Shown piece by piece: positions 1 to 14,400 of a DNA stretch of 53,033 nt; position 1 is the stretch's first letter, and each line of letters begins with the position of its first letter. Source of the DNA: Girardia tigrina (taxonomy: Eukaryota); NCBI GenBank assembly GCA_001938485.1, contig MQRK01239354.1:1-53033 (forward strand), given 5' to 3'. Both the position numbers and the translations under genes were made by a program. The notes beneath the pieces were generated by a model that searched no databases, was not told where the DNA came from, and saw nothing but the letters and a program-made list of their open reading frames with translations.

Positions 1-249
1 ATATATATATATATATATATACCTTTCCTCAAAAGACAGTCAAATTCAAATTGAGAACATTAATCTTGAATGACATTCTAGGATAATTTTATTTCTGTGA
101 TTCGTCTATTGCTTGCGCTTGTAGATATATAAATATAAAAATAATAATATGATTAAAGGAAATTTAAAATTAAAAAAGATTAAATAAAAAGAATTAAAAG
201 TAATTATTTATTATATTTTAAATATAAGTTTAATCTTTTAAGAACTACT

Positions 250-2340
250 CCAAGCTCTACGAAATTTTTGTCTTAAATCCTCTTTCTTTCTCAACCACTT
301 TTCATCTTCTATAGTCGACTTCGACTTGCAAAACTCTCGCATCGCTAAGGAACTTGCATCACACACTAACCGATACTCCATGTACCTCTACACGGATTAC
401 TCTTTTCAACTCTTTGAAGAGCCTCTTTAATATTACCAATTATAGATTTATCGATCAGTTTATCTCAATCCTCGGTAGTTATTCTTCTAAGGTACGACCA
501 AATTGGCCTTAACCGCGACGTGACATAAATCCGGATAAATCTTTAACTCATATTCGATTGACTCACCTCCACGTAATTTTTTCGATGATGTTACCAACAT
601 CTACTCCAAAAACTCTTACATTTTCGTGGTTGTTTACATTCCAATCGTAGTCTCACGAACAACTGTATTACCTCCTTGGCATCAAATCTAGATTTGTCGA
701 CAAATATCTCATCAATATAGGATCCTGTAGTAGCGTCCTTGAAACTAATGGCAATACCAATCCTACAATATCTGCCATGATTATGGGGCCTTTTTAAGTT
801 CAAATCTCATGTAAGTAAAAGCAAATTATTTAACATTAATCATGTATGATTGAACCAACCGTAGAGAGGGATCGACGCTCATTGGCATGTACATACTTGA
901 TAAATCTACTATTCAATTTAATTTTACCTTTTCTTCTTCACTCATTTAATTTTTCCGTGCACCAATTTGATGTACACAAAAAATACTAGTAAAAATCTCG
1001 AAAATTAAATATCGGTCTAATTGTTTCTTTCTTTACTTGCACTATATTATATATCGGAATCGATTTCATCGACTTAAGTATTTTTTGTTGGTTTTATTCT
1101 ACCAACCACATTTTATGATCCATTCATCCAAATATTAGTAATAGTTTATTTTGTGATTTTGAATCATTCAAACGTGTTTATCTATTTGTTAAAAAATTGA
1201 ATCATATAATTATGTTTTTCTATGTACACATAATCTTTACTGGTCTTAATCAAATTTCTATTCATACCAGAACTACAAACATTCAAAAGTTCTGACGTCA
1301 CACCCAATTTAACGTGTTCATTATTAAATGTCATAACTCGTAGCTTTCAATCACATCCACTTCTAGAAGTAAATCCAAAACTTCAGACAAAGCTTTCAAG
1401 ACCATACAATCCAGTTTTATCTGTTTAGCTTTACAGTATGGATCATTCTCTCAAGATTCCGTTTTTACCTCTAACCTATTGGACAGTTTAAATTTGTAGT
1501 TACTTTCTCCAAGAGAAAATAGACTCTTCTAATTTGCTTCGTCCGACAACCGATTGAGCGCATACCGTGTCCACGAAACCACTACTATATTCCCTATTTA
1601 CTATAGACTGCACCACAAGAAGGTCTTACCCATTTGTTAAACCCATTTAAAATGCTGCTATCGCTGAAGATTTTTCTCTTAAAGTTCGTGCAAGGAAAAG
1701 AACCTGGTGATGTGTCCTTTTTAAAACATTTGAAACATACAAAATTCCTTAGGTTCTTTCACATTGTTTTTATCTTTAGACTTTTGAAGCTTTTTATAGA
1801 TATTAACATTATTGTAATACTACAACAGCGTCCTCTTAAGATGATATGTCGTTTGTGATCACTTAAACTCACAATCGATATTCCATCTGCACTTTTGTTC
1901 ATCTTGATATACGAGATACTGATTTAAATCATTTCTTTCACACTTCGGACACTTCTTCTTTCGATTTTTAAGTAAGATAAATATTCTGAACTTTCTTATC
2001 TAATTTTGAAACTACAGTAGCGTATTTATCGATTGTATTGAAATTGTATAATTTTAAATCCTTTAGTTTACGATGCTCTTAACGAAATCTCACACCGTAA
2101 GCACCATCTGAAGCTGGAAATACTTAATTCTTTGTTTTTTCAAAGTTCATTGTGAATACTGAGAGCCGTTCCATTTTAGCACAAATGGAAATGACATAAA
2201 TACATCCTTCACCTGCTGAAGTATTGCATTCATTTCGAATTATTTTCACCATTACTCCTATAAATTATTTTTATTAAATATTTCTAGACACTTAAATATT
2301 AGTTTTATGCTTTACGTGCACGGAGAGCTTGTACTATCAG
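250..2340 (-). mobile_element. Degenerate Gypsy-like LTR retrotransposon gag-pol remnant
   Basis: Minus-strand reading gives a zinc-knuckle remnant (CFKCFKK.HITRF, ~1700-1745), a protease-like GFVDTVCAQSVV (~1545-1590) and an RT core GSYIDEIFV (~700-725). Many stops and frameshifts; boundaries approximate. Confidence 0.7.
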
Positions 2341-2667
2341 AAAAAATTAATTTAATTAAATTTTATTTCAAATATAAAAAATAATGAATCATTTGAAACA
2401 AATATTCTTTAATAGAAATATTTTAAAACATTTCAACATAAAGTAATCGAATTTTGAAAGATTTTACCGTAAAAATGTACGAAAAATGTAACGAATTTTG
2501 TTTAATATTGTTTTACATCTTTTGTTACTAATAAATCCAATAATTATTCATGAATAGCAATAATTCTACCAAATACGTTTTTACAAAAAAAATACAAAAA
2601 TAGATATATTCAATTTAATGAAACATAAGAGAAGTTATGAATTTAAAAAAAAGTGTCGAAGATCTGT

Positions 2668-3056
2668 TCAGATCGCAGCTCTGTGGTATCGATGTGAAGA
2701 ATTTCTTTTGCACACGCAACATATTACAACAGTAATAGTCAACACTAGTAAAACAACCATAATTGTTATAATAATAATACTGAGAACGGTTAATTCATAG
2801 CAACATTTGCTTGTTAAATTACTTTCCAAACAGCACTTTGGAGTTATGAATTTTTCAATAACTGAATTAAAATCATTACAATAAAAAATTATTAAAATAT
2901 AATATTACGTTTATTATCCAAATTACAATTTGTTTTTCCACATGACTCGGATATACCTTCTTTAACATATTTTTCTGCAATCTTTCCTGCAATATCTAGT
3001 AGAGAATGAATAGAACCAAATATGAGTGCTAAGAGAACGAGAGCACTTTTCAACAT
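2668..3056 (-). CDS. Small single-pass membrane protein with six-Cys ectodomain (Shisa-like/WBP1-VOPP1-TMEM92 type), 113 aa, exons 3056-2909 and 2861-2668
   Basis: ATG at 3056, a 47-nt GT..CAG intron (2908-2862) that joins in frame, and TGA at 2670-2668. Protein: MLKSALVLLALIFGSIHS (signal peptide) ...CGKTNC..KCCLESNLTSKCCYE, TM (LTVLSIIIITIMVVLLVLTITVVI), CCVC, KRNSSHRYHRAAI. Confidence 0.8.
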
Positions 3057-5323
3057 TTGAATATATTGCTGAAAAATAATAAACTTTACGTTAATCAAGA
3101 TATACCATACGTAAATATGATACGTTTGTACGTTAAGTTGCTGCAAATATTACGTATTTATGATATAAAAACAAATATAGCACATCTGTAATGTGAGAGG
3201 CTGTAGTGAGACTCCAATTTGATAAGCGTGTTGGCGGTTTAACTAAGTATATAAAACTAATTTTTTATTTACACAACATTTTAGTTTTAAAAATTTAAAT
3301 AAGCACACTACTTTTAAATGTTCTTAGTATATTTCTAGAGTAGAAAATTAAAGTGTTGAGGAATTTACATTGAGTTATTATTTATTTTATTATAATTTTG
3401 TCAAAAGTTACATTAATCACTCCCTTAAATAACAATTTTTATATAAAAACTACAAAAGTAATATTGGAAGGATTTAGAAAACTGAATAAATAATCTAAAT
3501 ATTAATATTATTTAGAAAAAAATACATATAAGTAAAATGCAGAATTATTCAAATTGAAAAACTACAAGACGTTTTGGAGAACGCAAAAATGATTTTTATC
3601 AATTTTTTAATATAGTGCTACATGGTAAACAATTTGCTATTTTCGGCCGTAGAGAAATACCATTTTCTAAAAGATGAAACAACTGTTTAATCCTAACCAA
3701 ATTATATAAAAACTACTTACTTTATTGCGTAATTTAACATTATGAACAGTAATTTTAACTTTACATGTAATTTAAGATGAGTAAGCTAATAAGGGTGCTT
3801 TTCCAACCTAACGGACGTCATATTTTTAGCGTGTTGCTGTTCTACGTTTACGAAATACTTCACTTTTTCAGATAACGGACATTCATATTGCATCCATCAA
3901 AAGGTTTTTTGAGTGAAAGTATTTGATTTCAAAGATACCATAGACTAGGTAAATTTTGTACAACTGACGTAATGCTTTCCAAAACCAACATTTTCGTGAG
4001 ATCTTCAAGGACTGAGAGGACTAAGATGTTTTGTACCAAGTTTTTATTTATTGGTTATTTCATGGTGAGTCGATGACAAGAAATCTTAACATTTTATTCT
4101 ACATAAATACGCTGTGTTCTTAAAACATTATGAAATTTTTGGTACTCTGGACATTATTGGTCAAAATACTATTTTAATTGATTTTTTTAATTTCACTAAA
4201 ATAACAGATCTATTTTGTTTTTAAGGAAATGTTCTTCGTGTCACTCAAGTTTAGCACAAGATTCATGACGTTATTGAACTAATGAGATTATATTTCAACA
4301 ATATTAATAAACATCTAATAATAATGTTAGTAATAATAATTTTATTATTAATTATATAAATTATATATATTAATTATATAATTATATAAATAATAATAAA
4401 GATAATAATAGAAAACTTTTTAAAAAGTTAAGAATACCGTTTAAATGTTTTGAGTTCTTTTGGATTACGAGGTCTAATTAATGCAAACTTTCATTAATTT
4501 TCCTGTCAAAATAACTAAAAATGCTTACTCAGAATTTGGAATTATTGATATTCATGTTACACTCATTCTTTTTGTTATGTTCAGCAATATTACTTATAAT
4601 CTAACTTGTCTCTTTGGACTTATTTGTAGAAGTTTAAAGTAAACTATTTTATTTATCCATTACATACATTTTGATAAACAATGGCCGAACATAAGTTGAG
4701 AGTTTTCGATTAATTTGAATTAAATTAGAAAAAAAATAATTTTTCATAATAACTTAGTATTTTCTGTATCTCAAATTCACCTCAATCTTCCACAATAATA
4801 AATTTCTTTAATAAATAATCGTTGACAAATAACAGAATACTCAAGAAATAGGACATTAAAATTATATTGTTTAAGTTCAATGAAAGTTTGCATGACAAAT
4901 TTTCTACAATTAATACGAAGGAATATGATTTTTATAACCTATAATTATAGTTGAAATTATAAGTAATTCTAATTTTTCTCTTTATAGAAACATAAAGAAA
5001 AATATTTAGAAAGCACATCATTTACATAAGTTAAATTATGAATACGTATCATGAAAAATGAACCACGGTTTTTCAAAACCTGTTCTGTATGGACTCATTC
5101 AAATAGTGACATTGTTTGATATTTCTTGTTGACGATTTGAATATTGATTGGTTAATTTTTGTTAGTGCTACTCTATACATTGACATATCGATTTACATTA
5201 CTTTTCTGAAAAACACAGTAGTTACCATTTTTTTCAAAAATATTTAAAAAAACGTTAAAGTGACTAGATATAAATAATTATTAAATTTGGAAATATTGCG
5301 ACAATTTCTGTACTATTTTCAAA

Positions 5324-5421
5324 ATGGTAGACGAACCAATTGAAGTTAAAACGCTAGATCCGGATTTTGAAGTAATTGAGTTTGAAGATATAATGTGCAG
5401 TTTTCCACATGAAGATAAATG
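5324..5421 (+). CDS. PICK1: PICK1 exon 1 (acidic N-terminus MVDEPIEV...HEDK)
   Basis: ATG at 5324, open frame to EDK, then a 46-nt intron 5422-5467 (GT..CAG). Confidence 0.85.
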
Positions 5422-8400
5422 GTTTTTTTTCAACTTTTAAATTAAATAATACAATTAAATAATACAGTGGAATGAGAGTAACCAGTGGATCGGTAAAACT
5501 TACTAAGGATAAAAACAGTCTAATTGGAATAAGTATCGGGGGAGGAATTCCATACTGTCCTTGTATTTATATTGTACAGATTTTCGATAACACAGTTGCT
5601 GCAAAAGAAGGAACTCTTGAAGCTGGTGATGAAATTACTGCAATCAACAGAAAATCAGTAAAGGGAATTAGTCGAGCAGAAGTTGCTAAATGGATTCAAA
5701 AATCCGAGGTGAATTCGAATTTTTATTTTTAAAACTATTTTTAAAATATTACTATTTAACTATATTAACTATTACTATATTACTGCTTTTCATTCCTTTA
5801 CTAGTTTTTAATAGTTCAGTATGACAATATTGTCCTAAAGTTAAACAATAAATAAATAGTAATAACTTTAATAATTTAATTAAATCATGTATGAAAATAT
5901 GATATTAATGACATGTTTCGATCTTTTCCTAAATAACAAAATTAATCAAAATCTTTGTGGTTAATAATAACATTTTTAACATTTAATAAAAGATTTGAAA
6001 CATTGAGGTTGTCCATTTTGAATGTTAATTATTGGCTTGTCTTATCAATAGTGTTTCATATGACTACTTCTCGAAATGTTAATCAAAAACTGTTTATAGA
6101 ACAGAAAACTCATACTTTGAAATCCTTGAGATTCTACTCGTTCAACACAACCAAGTCAAGAACATCATTTAATCCGGGGTTTAAGAAAACGATTTATTTC
6201 TAAAATGTTGCGAGAATAACTAATAATAAGACTATGAAACTCATTAGTTAACATTACAAAACGGACAAACTAAAGCTTCTTCAATACTGAAAATCTTTCA
6301 ATAAAAATTAAAAAATGATTTTGATAACTAAAGAAAGGTTTTCAATGAGCAAAAATATGTTATCAAATTACTCCTCACCTATCTGTTACTATCACAACTA
6401 ATAATCCTGAAACATTTTAGATTGGAAAAAATCCAAAATTAACTTTTAATTCGTATTTCTCTTCAAATAATACTTTGTTTATCTGATCATGTCAGTAAAT
6501 TTTAGTGACAAGGATTGTATTTGGAATCGCTTAAAGTATTATTTTGTTCATTTCCTCTTTAACTATTAAAAGTCAGTTATTACTAACATTCAATATGATT
6601 AAATAATATAACATCAATAATATCTAAGATTCTAGTTAAATATTTTCATTTTAGAGGCAGATTTGTATTGCCCATTTTGACTAATAATTATTAGTGACAT
6701 TTATGTGAATTACTAATGATAATTATAATTATCAATAGTAATTCACATAAATGTCACTGAAAATGTAAATCATAAGCCTTGGAAAAAAACTCATTTTTTG
6801 AAATCGATGAGGTTTTACTCGTGCAACAAAATCAGAGGTCGAGAGTCTTATTCGATGAACTAGATTGTAAATATTCACATAATTCAGGGTTTGAAATATA
6901 AATTTTTCTCTCATATTCAAGTTTTTAAAATTTCGAAAAGAACTACTGCTTTATTTATTCTACGAAAAGAATGTCACCTTCTTCATATTTTTTTCTGTCT
7001 TCGGTAGTAATTATGATTAAATTAATTTACCACATGATCTTAAAACCTCCACACTGTTTTTGATTTATTGGAGAGAATACCATACCCTTTATATGTTATT
7101 GCAAACATCTCAACACAACTAAATTATTTATAAACACTTTTTTTAAAGTTTTAAAACTTTCAGAATATATAGTATTGTTATTATTTGTTAGTTCTCTTTA
7201 ATATTTTCTTCATTTAATCCTTTCAATCTGTTTTTGTGAACATAATTTGTCCAACTTTATTTCACTACTGTTACTCTATTTGTTTGTCCTTGTTCATCTT
7301 GTCACTCATGACAAAGGACTAAGTTTTCTGAATTTTGAATATGTTTTTTGATTTTGATGTCACACATCAAGTTTTAACTATTTCCAGAGAGTGTTAAGCT
7401 CTTACTGATAAGTTAAGAAAACATAACCTTTTGATCTAATTTTCAAAAAATATTTTAAAAAAATAATAAAATGTGTCTTGTTTTGAACAGAATTTCTGAA
7501 TCTTATAAATGAGGGTTTTCAAAGAAAATCCTCAGAAAATACTCAGTTTAAGGAGTCTTATTAAAAAAGTGTCACTCACAATGTGCTTGAGGACATCAAA
7601 GAGGCGATTAGACTTCCATTTACTCAGATAATATTCAAATCTAACTATTAAGAACGCCAACATGGGCTTTCGAACTTTTATTTTCAATACAATTAGTATT
7701 GTCTTTTGGACAACTCTCAGCAAAGCTTTCGTAATTCGACATCGTCCTAAATTGATAAATTTTAGTTAATGTTTTTAATAAACAATTATTGGAACAAATT
7801 TTTCATTATTTTCAGATTTTATTTTTAAAGTTCAAATTTTGTAATTTTAGTAATAATATTTTCTACATATTAATTTTATTTAAAAAATGGTTTTATGTAA
7901 AGAAAGAACATTTATTTAATCTAAAACTTAGTTAAAAGTTATTTACTTTATTTAAATTTTTAATATGAAGATTTGAAACAATTTAATATTTTTAAAGTTT
8001 TTTAAATATCTTATGCTGTACTTTAAAATGCAAATTTTACTCGAAGAATTATTTATCGTGAACATCCAAAATATCAATTTTCCATCTGGGTGGGAGAAAC
8101 ACATTTCCAAATACTAAACTCAACACACAAAATTCAACAAACCAATTTCGACATACCAAATTTAAAATATTCCTCACACTAACAGCTACTGGTTACTGGA
8201 TATTAGTGTAAGAAAGTTAAAGCAGTAGGCCATGAATTTAATCTTCAAAAGGATATATGCTGGTTTTTCAGTCGCAAACATTCCTGACCTGATTCGACTT
8301 CATTTCATGAAGAAACATGTAACCAAGGGCGAAGAAAGTAATGGAAAGAGAATCTCACTATGAAAAAATGTCACATTCAAAATTTATCTATTTTCTTTTT

Positions 8401-11400
8401 ATCTTCTATATTTTTATATAAAATTCAAAAAAAGGAAAATTAAATCTCAAACTATATTTCAATCGGGGAATAAAAAAGAGTAAAACAGGTATTCATTATC
8501 ATTTCATGAAACAGAAAAAAATCTATTGTCATTTTTAACGACATATTCATGTAAAACAGAACTTCAAGCTGTTGTGTTTTTCAAAACAAAATGTCGTAAT
8601 TGGCGCGCGATTGAACGCAATTTAGGTGTTTCTTTCTGATTTATTGAAATAAAATAATTTAAGCATCATACTTTTGAAGAACACAAATTCTGTAATAATA
8701 TTTATTTAATACGATAATGATCGGAATTTAATAACCGAACAACAATTAAACAATTTTTGCCTTTTATATTGAGACTTTGATTATGTCAATTTGGCATTAT
8801 ATGCACTGGGTCAGTTGATGATATCGAATATGACATTGCAATAGCTTATTCAGATGAAGTAATGACATGTAAAATCGCCGGAATTCGAACTCATGAGAAT
8901 TTGAAGTCATGGACGGGATATCATCATAGTACGATATAAGGCAATATGATGAGTTATGACGTCAGCACCAGGCGCGTACGCAGGGGGCGGATTAGGGGGA
9001 TAATTCCGTTCCCGAAAAAAATTGAATTACAATCTTTATTAACCCTAGGTTTTTAACAGCATATTGATAAGAATAATTTAAAATTTTGAAGTTTAAAATG
9101 TGAACTTTCCAAAATTTTAGGAAAAGTTTTTAAAAATTTAAGAAAATCCACCCCGAAAAATTTAAGTTGTGATGACTTTAAGTTTTGCAGAACATAGAAA
9201 ATTTTCTTCTTCAAAACATAAAACATGCTGCAGATAAAAAAATCCTCCTATCGATAGAAGCCAGTAATGAACTATGGCCAAGTGATATTAGTTACATTAG
9301 TGGTATTTCGATGTTATTATGTATTTTATTATTTTAACCCTTTGACTACCGGAGACCCGTATGGGTTTACGGTTTATAACTATTGAACGAAGAGGAATTT
9401 TTTAATGCGGTTTTTTTCTAAATATTACTATTAACTTTTCAAAATCCTTTGATGCTGTGGAAAGGCCGTTTATCATTCAAGCAATACATACCATCAAAAA
9501 GAAGTAGATTTGGTATAAAGTTATTTGAATTAGTCGACTGTTACTCGAAAGCAATATTAGATTTCATTATCTACAACGGCTCCGAAACTGACATTAATTA
9601 TTTACAGAATCACGGCGTTAGCGGATCTATCGTCATGTCTTTGCTACAACCTTATCTGAACAAAGGACATGTTTTGTATTGTGATAACTGGTACTCTAGT
9701 CCAACTCTATTCAATTTATTGCATCAGAACAAAACTGGAGCATGTGAAACAGTGAGAAAAAATTGTAAAGGATTGCTAAAATTCACTGGAAAATAGCGAA
9801 AAGGAGATGTTCAATGGTTTTTGTCTTCAGCTCTTCTAGCAATGAAATGGAAAGACAAGCGAGATGTCTACATGTTATCGACTGTAAATAGTACAAATCT
9901 CTTGAACAGTGGAAAAATTGATAGATCAAACGGAACAGAAATTATGAAGCCCGCTCTAGTCATGGAATATTCGCAAAAAATGGGAGCTATTGATGAAACT
10001 GACATGCAGATATCATTCTCTGCTTCAATTAGGAAAACTTTGAAGTGGTATAAAAAGTTATTCTTTCATATGATGGATATGGTGATATTCAATTCATATA
10101 TAGCATACAGAATGAAGCAGAATGCTAAAGACTTACAGCTTGCTCAGTTCAAATTGCTTTTGGTTAGAGAAATACTTCAGAGATATGGTCCTTCAGAGAG
10201 AAATAGAGTTGGTAGACCTTCTAATGCTCCTACACCTTTGAGATTAGTTGCTCGTCACTTTCCTGACAATGTTCCACAAGATCCAAAGAGTAGAGAACGA
10301 AGTAGAAGAAATTTTATTGTTTGTAGTGCGAAACAAATTCAACAACAAAGTTATTTCATGTGCCTTGACTGTAATATGCCATTATGCGTACCAAATTGTT
10401 TCCGAATTTACCACACTAAGCTTCATTTTTATGTAGATGAGTGATAAAAACCAATTCTAATCAGTCAAATATAATAATACTGCAATATTCATTGAAAACT
10501 CTTGTTTGTAGCTCAACAAACTCATTTTTGTAACTATTATGTAATAAATATTTCTATGTCTTTTTAAAATTTTTTCATGCTTAATTACCTTTGTTACGTC
10601 TAAAACTTCAATAAAATTACCATATCTCCAAAAAAAAATTTGGTAGTCAACGGGTTAATAATTAATTATTAATTTTTTTAACTTTAAAAATAAAAACTCG
10701 AATACGAAAACAAATATTGCATAATAATATATCCCCTCGAAACATTTTTCTACGTATACGCCTGGTTATCACAATTTTTTGTTGTCCTAATTATTTAAAA
10801 TTTGTCTACTCCTCAATGTGAGATACACGACATTATTTAACCATGGACATTTATTCGTTTTATACATTTTTTATTTTATTATATAGTGAACAATTCATCG
10901 TTGATTTTTCTTTTTTAGAACGAGGTTACTATAAATTATAACAAATTACATGTGGATAACAATAGCGGCCGTTCAGTTGATATGGGTAAGTTATTTTTAT
11001 ATAATAGTTAAATCGAGTAAAAATCAATTGAAAAAATTCAAGAGAAATAAAAATGAACATTTTTTGCTAGAACTAAATAAATAATCAAATAATTTGCTTG
11101 GGCATTACAAAATACCAGTTTTATTTGTTTACATAAGCTTTATTAAGAACATTAGCAGTATTAACAAACCTGTTGAAATTGTCTTAATGGAAAATTCAAA
11201 ACAAGACTAATCTATAACAATCATACTAAATTGATAATATAATAATGTCTTCGAAACTTCTAATTATTCGAACAAATATTCATTTCATTAATATCAATAA
11301 ACATTAAATATTAAGGGTGTGAGGGCGATTTAAAAGAAGTGAAAAATTTTGAAGTCAGAATTATTAATTATCAGGATAAGAATGATCATCAAAATTGAAA

Positions 11401-14400
11401 TTCAAAATTTATAAATTATAGAGTAATAATTGAATTTAATGTTAAACGTTAAATTATTCAAGATTAAAGTTAAGTTTATTTAATTTAAGTTAATATAAAG
11501 TATAAGATACTTTAAAATTATAGTACAGTCAAAGTTCGGTTTAACGAAAATCAATTTACACGGATTTTGGTCTTTCGTAAAAAAAAATAACGAAAATTCA
11601 GAAATTTATTGAATTTTTTTATTAAAATAATCCGTGATTTTCATACCTTTTNTTTTTTTTGTTTTCATAATATCTTCTTTAACTTTTCCAAGATTAATAA
11701 AATCGGTACAACTGTTTTGCAGCATATAAGCTTCCACTAAATTAATATATGAGATCACCTCATTATAACTAACTAGTTTTTCTTTCTCTTCCTCTTCCTC
11801 TGAGACTTTTTCTTCGGTTGGTAGTATTTCATCTATACAAATTTCTTCACTGTTTAAATCATCATGTTCGATGTATTCATTGCAAGTTGGAAAGTCAACA
11901 TCAAGTTGATTTTCTTGAGTATCTTCAATATCATCATCTATTATGTCAACTGTATTTTTTGACCAATTGTTAAATGCTTTATTAAAACAGTTTGTGATTG
12001 TCTCGGCACTCATACAATTCCATGCTTCAATAATCAACGATAAAATATCTTTAAGTTTTGTGTTTTTAAGCAAATTTGCATAGCATGTACCATCTTTTTC
12101 ATCATTCAATGTTAAATTTCGCATGAAAAACTTACGATAGTTGGCCTTCAAAGATCGAATTATACCTTGAATCTGTGAGGTGGTTATTGGTGGCAAAAAG
12201 TATAGTTGAACATTAGAGAAAGTACTATTGATATTATGAACTGGTGCATTGTCCAGTATTAATAAAATTTTCCTATTTTCTTTTTGCATTCTGTCATTAA
12301 GTTGATTCATCCAGTTAAAGAAAATAGTGCTTGTCATCCAAGCCTTTTTGCTGTTTTTATAATCCAACCCAAGGTCATTCAAATTCAAGTGTTTAAACCC
12401 GTGTGGTCTCTGTGCCTTTCCAATTAGTAATGATATTTCTTTTTGACCAGATAAATTTGCACAAAAAAGCAAAGTTATGCGGTCTTTGGCAAATTTACCA
12501 TGCCCTGTCGTCTTTTGATAAAACAAGTGTTTTTTTGGACGGGCATTTAAAAAACAAAGATGTCTCGTCACAATTGTATATGTTCTTTGATTCGAATTCT
12601 GCTTTCATGTGTTCAAAATCACTCCAACTGTTCTTTAAGTCATCCACTTTGACCAATCCTGCTTCTCCTCAAACGGTTTTATTGATTATTAGAAAGTGCT
12701 GTTTAAATTTTCTCAGCCATGTATTTGATGCTTTAAATGATTGAAAATTATAAGCATTGGCGATTGACAGTGCTTTTTCGGTCAATAAATCATNNNNNNN
12801 NNNNNNNNNNNNNNNNNNNNNNNNNNNNNNNNNNNNNAATAATACATTGAATAATTTTTGGTTAATTTCTTTTGTTTGTGTAATATTTTTTGCATTTCTT
12901 TTGTTTTCACATATTTTCCGTAGATCTTTCTCTTTTTTTAATATTGAATTGATTGTTCCAAGAGAAATATTAATTTTTTTTGTCATTTCAAGTTGTGTAA
13001 CATCGGGATTCAGTAACTTGTAATCTAGAATTTTAATTTTTTCATCAATACTTACATGTCTTCTTGTTTGCTTTTGATTATTCACTCGGCTAGTCATGGG
13101 TTTTAGTCTTTCGTTAAAAAAATTTGGTTAAACTGTATATTAAAACAAAATTTCATGGACCTTTAAAATTATATTTTCGTAATATAGTTTTTTTCGTTAA
13201 TTAAAATTTCGTAAAATAAAACTTTGAATGTATAATAAATTATAAGTATTTATAATATTAAATGGGTTTACAACTGATATCCTCATGAGAAAGTATTTAT
13301 GAATTTATAGACTTATTTTATGTATCAATAATGAAACAAACAATTTTAATTATTAATACAAAATGTTTGTTTAAATGTTCACAAATTTGAAGACTTGAAT
13401 TTTGAATAATTGATTGTGTACAAAAATTTTGATAAAAAAATATATTTTTCAAATGGAAGTGAATTTTTGATGATTGAAGAACCTAAGAAGAGGCACCAAA
13501 ATGTAATCAAACTTTTTAAGTAACTAAGTCAACTTAAGCTGCCAAATATATAATATTAGTTCTTTGCGAGATCATGACTGGGTCGTTGCCGAACAACACA
13601 AACTTATTCCATCAGTATATACCGGAATCATAATCAAGGAAAACGGATATGGATCTCAGGATACAGCTACATATTCCGCACCACCGTTTACTACTATTTG
13701 ACCAAGAAAACACTCATCTTCGACGGCAAAAACTCATGTTAAGGACTTTAAGCTCCTGGTGAAACTTAAAGAGTTCAAATGAATCACAAAAACTTCAGAA
13801 AATATCTCAAACCCGATTTTCTTTTACTTTCTGATGGGGGACCCGATGAAAATCCTTGTTATCCTAAGACCATAAGAAGTGTAATTAATCATTTTATCGA
13901 TTTCGATTTAGACGCTTTTTTCATCGCCACAAACACTCCAGGAATAAGTGTATTTAACATTGTCGATAGAAGAATAACTGCATTAAGCCAAGAACGGAGT
14001 CGTCATACTTCCACATGATCATGTTGGGGTTATGTAAATATTATTGATTTATTGCGTGAATTTTATTATTTATGCTTTTGTTTTTATTATTTATATTTGG
14101 TTTGTGAATTTTCAATTTTATTATTTATGTTTTTTTTGTAAATTTTATTATTTATATTTGTTATTTATAATTTTATTTAAAATAAATTTAAATTTTATAT
14201 ATGTTATTTATTTATAATCTTATTTAAATATAATTAAACTTATTATTATATTTCGTTACGCACTATGCGCTCTTGTCACGCATAGTGCGTCCTTTTGTGG
14301 TGGCCGCGCGTCTTCATTTTTGCGGTGGTCGAACGTCTTATTAGTGTCCAACGCGTTCTTATTTTATTTTTGCGACGCGTTCTTATTTTGTGACTAAGCC

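Follow-up and report, generated by a model that had tools for sequence, protein, structure and literature searches.

An expressed two-exon gene beside PICK1 encodes a small six-cysteine protein that is likely a DUF2650-like member of the STMC6 kind

Shisa-like (STMC6) proteins have been described previously (PMC6125347, PMC11399591), and WBP1L, which carries the C*C*CC*CC cysteine pattern, has been shown by measurement to be palmitoylated (PMC6991692). PICK1 is reported to favour class II C-terminal ends, with a preference of Val>Ile>Leu at P0, and to have more than 40 ligands of several classes (PMC4704001). Mouse Shisa9 is described as binding PICK1 via its last four residues (PMC3911953), and the AMPA-receptor Shisas are classed as an innovation of vertebrates (PMC7653359). 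Bidirectional gene pairs are defined by less than 1 kb between starts and were found to be co-expressed but not functionally linked (PMC3403606).

The window considered here, the whole analysed stretch of 53,033 nucleotides, contains a small gene on the minus strand (2593-3153) that diverges from a PICK1 gene on the plus strand. The preferred reading, to which a probability of about 0.75 is given, is that the small gene, expressed and made up of two exons, encodes a single-pass six-cysteine protein of 113 aa, likely a DUF2650-like STMC6 member that would serve as a small palmitoylated accessory subunit, and that its adjacency to PICK1 is likely due to chance. This reading is built on a transcript, its intron, the cysteine pattern, a five-copy family and a sequence link to a DUF2650 protein.

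Gene model and transcript

The coding sequence of the small gene begins with a minus-strand ATG at 3056, is interrupted by a GT-AG intron of 47 nt (2908-2862) and ends with a stop at 2670-2668, giving a product of 113 aa. Position 2862 is the sole AG acceptor between 2946 and exon 2. Eleven open GT/GC-AG spliced models are possible from the DNA, three of which join this same acceptor to donors at 2956, 2941 and 2926 and would yield products of 97, 102 or 107 aa that are poorer in cysteines; DNA by itself is therefore insufficient to fix the model.

Contigs were taken from four runs, representing four studies, out of nine runs that contain the stretch; for three of the four, RNA is a guess, the fourth is of unspecified kind, and none of the nine is on record as RNA. 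The contigs of all four carry the joint 2861/2909 and no other skips, and those of X1 and X9 have a poly(A) end at 2593. Because exact intron loss together with poly(A) is what mRNA gives, these contigs are regarded as mRNA. The small gene is real and expressed, and its two exons are spliced. The original prediction of a two-exon gene with a 47-nt intron, missed by the ORF track, is thus confirmed by an exact skip in 4/4 runs, with poly(A) in two. The alternative donors are absent from every contig examined, and no second near-identical copy of the small gene was found in a genome search.

In transcript order on the minus strand, the 5′ UTR (3057..3153) measures at least 97 nt, 3148 and 3153 being the ends of the X1 and X9 contigs, which show no loose letters there, although contigs cannot fix the start. 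Coding exon 1 (2909..3056) specifies a predicted signal peptide (approximately residues 1-18), a short polar segment and C-x4-C. The phase-1 intron (2862..2908) interrupts the six-cysteine domain. Coding exon 2 (2668..2861) continues with CC-x8-CC, a predicted transmembrane helix, CCVC, a 13-residue tail and the stop, and the 3′ UTR (2593..2667), drawn from contigs and sequence, contains ATTAAA at 2619 and the poly(A) site at 2593. An Rfam scan of window 1-4200 gave no matches. Directly downstream of the small gene, at window 240-2300, lies an old dispersed repeat with broken reading frames and 64-81% identity to many places in the genome. For annotation the locus is of value as a short two-exon gene overlooked by ORF tracks and Pfam.

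The six-cysteine protein and its paralogues

The six ectodomain cysteines of the product lie at residues 39, 44, 59, 60, 69 and 70 and form the pattern C-x4-C-x14-CC-x8-CC. Hydropathy, used here in place of a dedicated signal-peptide or helix predictor, peaks at residues 1-17 and at approximately 74-96. The second peak corresponds to the predicted transmembrane helix (2722..2790, minus strand), where 19-residue hydropathy reaches up to 3.2. It is followed by the juxtamembrane CCVC (residues 97, 98 and 100; 2710..2721, minus strand), whose cysteines are likely palmitoylation sites and which has a counterpart cysteine cluster in all five copies described below and in the nematode protein P0001 (see the final section). 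A tail of 13 residues after the last cysteine ends in RAAI (2671..2682, minus strand), a class II-like candidate PDZ motif with Ala at P-2 that is absent from 4/4 paralogues. The last 30 residues contain no Pro, and the product has no [LP]PxY motif. Compared with X7, a run carrying another organism label, there are nine differences at coding positions, of which five replace a residue and four are silent; the six ectodomain cysteines are the same and the third and last Cys of CCVC is replaced by Arg in X7.

At least four more loci in the genome (C22541, C238788, C202994 and C225780) encode similar proteins, a count that is a lower bound and to which searches with two other copies added none. 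The paralogue models, predicted from DNA only, are 93-96 aa long and share C-x4-C-x14-CC-x(6-7)-CC, a helix and a cysteine run, with a phase-1 intron at the same place in all four. Their identity to the window protein is 29-35%, and C238788 and C202994 are 85% alike. The window copy has 13 residues after the last cysteine, whereas the other four have 0-3. No [LP]PxY motif occurs in the four copies tested, and the fifth ends three residues past its last Cys. The most divergent paralogue, C225780 (L039:5344, near 102,640; L026:120-283), has a predicted intron of approximately 14.8 kb, as against 47 nt in the window gene, and ends YII three residues past its cysteine cluster. Approximately 5 kb upstream of C238788 a broken Hsp90-like fragment was recognised by eye (L028:1187-2067, minus strand).

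Given the signal peptide, the six cysteines would face the lumen or the cell exterior, as in a type I membrane protein, and could pair to form three disulfides. The CCVC cluster would probably be palmitoylated, by analogy with the modification measured for WBP1L (PMC6991692). The product may bind a membrane client through its disulfide domain and helix and so alter the trafficking or activity of that client, its likeliest role being that of an accessory subunit of another membrane protein. Recruitment of NEDD4 ligases, a property of WBP1, VOPP1 and CYYR1, would not be expected of the product, which lacks a PY motif. As the other copies end 0-3 residues past the last cysteine, the function common to the family must reside in the disulfide domain and helix, and with four of the five copies nearly tail-less it cannot depend on a PDZ ligand.

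The PICK1 neighbour and the C-terminal tail

The neighbouring gene has the PDZ domain, the BAR (arfaptin) domain and the CPC loop that identify PICK1. Its ATG lies at 5324 on the plus strand, and the frame of the inferred first coding exon (5324..5421) joins the PDZ exon (5468..5708) across a GT-AG intron of 46 nt (5422-5467). The PDZ exon matches Pfam PDZ with E 8e-10 and the solved PICK1 PDZ in the PDB with E 4e-27. Further plus-strand exons, encoding the end of the PDZ and the BAR domain, were located by tblastn of two homologues between 10919 and 39111 among transposon-filled introns; this search missed at least one BAR exon. Among 39 full-length or partial PICK1 relatives, 38 have Lys at alphaB1 (one was not parsed), in contrast to Arg in the window copy. 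A PICK1 tree of 24 rows places the window copy on a long branch with a fluke sequence (support 84/75), and a PDZ-only tree of 16 rows leaves it without a resolved position. Together with the AT-richness of the DNA and introns of 46-47 nt, this weak pairing with a fluke may point to a flatworm. No literature on PICK1 in planarians was found in the library searched.

The genome contains at least three types of PICK1, the others having 68% and 56% PDZ identity to the window type, and further PICK1-like loci lie at G000:C254810:28741-28974 and on G000:C135190, C221855 and C241018. The alphaB1 residue is Arg in the window copy and the C135190 type and Lys in C254810; the C135190 type is without the CPC lipid-binding loop. 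A pyruvate kinase-like gene, recognised by eye (L010:1-1200, L031:9497 of C254810), precedes the Lys-type PICK1 by approximately 8.5 kb and shares its strand. Within PICK1 introns of the window are a piggyBac-like transposase (PF13843) in two frames (9422-10444, plus strand) and a DDE_1 (pogo-like) transposase (11606-13127, minus strand), with mariner-like and retroelement fragments, read by eye, further along.

PICK1 ligands have hydrophobic residues at P0 and P-2 of a free cytosolic end, and the predicted tail of the small protein shows this in a weak form, with Ile at P0 and Ala at P-2. That mouse Shisa9 binds PICK1 makes an interaction of this tail with PICK1 plausible. Going roughly by 5,198 residues taken from long ORFs, chance would give approximately 9% of proteins a class II-like end and approximately 13% a class I or II end. 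A complex prediction with the PICK1 PDZ exon (80 aa, with the last strand missing and without an alignment) and the last 30 residues of the product reached a score of 0.02, where the mark is 0.34; with no control folded alongside, this counts neither for nor against binding.

One alternative to the preferred reading holds that the tail does function as a PDZ ligand, whether of one of the PICK1 copies or of another PDZ scaffold, and that the gene order is incidental. The hydrophobic P0, the predicted cytosolic position of the tail and the breadth of PICK1 binding, with its more than 40 ligands of several classes (PMC4704001), are consistent with this, as is the YII end of a second paralogue. 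However, YII stands just three residues past the cysteine cluster, and a hydrophobic end (V, I or L) in two of four independent copies has by hand calculation a chance probability of approximately 0.23. X7, the sole comparison available, shows no changes in the last 13 codons where approximately one is expected, and is too close to be informative on conservation. A working PDZ ligand is considered unlikely.

The original prediction raised the possibility that a shared promoter co-transcribes the small gene and PICK1 and that the RAAI tail binds the PDZ of this PICK1 copy as cargo to its adaptor. The two genes are indeed divergent, and the distance between their ATGs, predicted as approximately 2.27 kb, measures 2,268 nt. 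The predicted topology gives a cytosolic tail, PICK1 prefers class II ends with Val>Ile>Leu at P0 (PMC4704001), the last four residues of mouse Shisa9 mediate its binding (PMC3911953) and a tail long enough for a PDZ groove, of 13 residues, is confined among the five copies to the one beside PICK1. The stretch that separates the 5′ end mapped for the small gene from the PICK1 ATG (3154..5323) is nevertheless 2.17 kb (2,171 nt) in length, about twice the usual limit, and starts less than 1 kb apart would require PICK1 transcription to begin 1.17 kb or more upstream of the PICK1 ATG. Room for an unseen non-coding PICK1 exon upstream is left by acceptor-like sites at 5106, 5165 and 5218. A TATAAAT box on the plus strand at 5269 is weak evidence of a promoter because this box occurs approximately three times per kb here, and TATA-like boxes, being near chance level, were set aside as promoter evidence. 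Between the two genes, at window 4492-4602, lies a short fragment that is 73-79% identical to many places.

The pairing is repeated neither in 84,355 nt around the four paralogue loci, where no PICK1 match was found (0/4), nor in 39,759 nt upstream of the four other PICK1-like loci, where no six-cysteine match was found (0/4), although the latter include three almost identical copies and some of the contigs are short, and such paralogue neighbourhoods tell little about orthologous linkage and are no substitute for cross-species synteny. Also against a functional pair are the small residue, Ala, at P-2, the rough expectation of class II-like ends in approximately 9% of proteins, the co-expression of bidirectional pairs without a functional link (PMC3403606) and the placing of AMPA-receptor Shisas as a vertebrate innovation (PMC7653359). 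Counting against chance, the gap of 2.2 kb is short for a genome of 1.43 Gb. With a spacing of approximately 2.2 kb, a linkage unrepeated among in-genome paralogues, a tail in one of five copies and a C-terminal motif frequent by chance, the co-regulated adaptor-cargo pair is unsupported, though not refuted, and is rated very unlikely.

Little credence is likewise given to an evolutionary extension of this idea, in which a nearly tail-less DUF2650-like copy gained a PDZ-binding tail while head-to-head with a duplicated PICK1 (alphaB1 Lys to Arg), the two forming a co-regulated scaffold-cargo module, specific to the lineage, as a parallel of separate origin to Shisa9-PICK1 in vertebrates. Were the link to PICK1 true, it would join a scaffold physically to its cargo, which is rare among animals, and would represent a Shisa-like/PICK1 binding that arose independently. 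The position of the small gene beside PICK1 is likely a chance neighbourhood.

Family assignment and comparison with known systems

The product shows a single helix after an N-terminal signal, as judged by hydropathy, and juxtamembrane cysteines, and in 5/5 copies C*C*CC*CC lies beside the helix; these are features of STMC6 proteins. The proline-rich PY cytosolic region of mammalian STMC6 proteins is missing, as it is in P0001. Shisa proper (PF13908) has the pattern C*C*CC*C*CC*C and a long tail, whereas the product has six cysteines only.

Direct profile searches are silent. Pfam gave no STMC6 family above chance for the separate exons of the window (best CYYR1, E 0.053), the single exons do not reach the PF10853 cut-off, and a PF10853 profile against the genome gave no matches among 52 candidates; the silence on the window exons may be due to the intron splitting the domain. 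A profile of four exon-2 pieces against 1.84 billion proteins retrieved one protein, P0001 (UniRef100_A0A915JL02, 109 aa, from the nematode Romanomermis culicivorax), with E 1.3e-8, and this protein scores 32.8 bits on Pfam DUF2650, for which the cut-off is 22.9 bits. The small protein thus has significant homology to a DUF2650 member. The reciprocal search with P0001 recovered four of the five loci, the window at E 0.0014. With an ectodomain-only profile P0001 scored above 1000/1000 fixed-cysteine shuffles, narrowly (15.6 vs 15.0 bits), and beyond the cysteines P0001 and the copies have in common an F and L-T-x-L-S. Because the window exons and the PF10853 genome scan gave no match, the DUF2650 link is transitive through this one protein.

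Other searches add leads at most. Atlas neighbours are clusters of CYYR1, Shisa-like-2A and DUF2650 at 0.85-0.86, below 0.9. Word-based searches gave no candidate homologue with the exon-2 frame and, with P0001, itself alone among 45 candidates; the only matches in a PDB profile search were weak ones to a TRPM7 helix, with E no better than 0.11. The predicted structure of P0001 with five exon-2 rows has a mean pLDDT of 62.6, with 52-59 in the cysteine domain, too poor for a fold search. Convergence, in which the copies form a lineage-specific family of small cysteine-rich membrane peptides, would fit the lack of a direct Pfam match, the empty word-based search and a spacing unlike that of P0001 (4/14 vs 7/10), but is highly improbable given an E of 1.3e-8 against 1.84 billion proteins, the reciprocal matches, the F and L-T-x-L-S shared beyond the cysteines and the fixed-cysteine shuffle result.

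The product is likely, from its sequence, a DUF2650-like member of the Shisa-like (STMC6) kind. Of the family call made initially, Shisa-like/WBP1/VOPP1/TMEM92, the Shisa-like layout holds and can be narrowed, through P0001, to DUF2650-like in preference to Shisa proper or WBP1/VOPP1/TMEM92. The product has neither a PY motif nor a proline-rich tail, and it is not a Shisa in the narrow sense, since the cysteines of Shisa proper are more numerous and its tail is long and rich in proline. The library searched yielded no literature on DUF2650, and that on planarian shisa contained, by title or start of abstract, nothing on this gene. Pei and Grishin 2012 reportedly count DUF2650 among their STMC6 groups, and relatives of the five-copy family may already be listed in the text or supplements of that paper. 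The family ties this genome to DUF2650, a group without study in the literature searched, and RNAi could provide the first function for the group if the organism is a tractable flatworm.

The closest described relative is P0001, which similarly is approximately 100 aa in length, with C*C*CC*CC immediately ahead of the helix, L-T-x-L-S where the helix begins, a cysteine run past the helix, no PY motif and a very short tail (4 residues, compared with 13 in the window copy). The two proteins are 36% identical over 97 columns, and they differ in cysteine spacing, which is 4/14/8 in the product and 7/10/6 in P0001. WBP1, WBP1L, VOPP1, CYYR1 and TMEM92 likewise have a C*C*CC*CC luminal domain, one helix and palmitoylation cysteines (PMC6991692, PMC11399591), but the product is without their proline-rich tail and [LP]PxY. 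Shisa proper, including Shisa6-9/CKAMPs, resembles the product in its signal peptide (predicted here), cysteine-rich ectodomain and one helix, and some members end in PDZ motifs, with Shisa9 binding PICK1 (PMC3911953); its cysteine pattern, C*C*CC*C*CC*C, and its long tail rich in proline set it apart (PMC10531659). The AMPA-receptor Shisas are vertebrate-only, and their juxtamembrane cysteines are missing in zebrafish (PMC7653359, PMC10531659).
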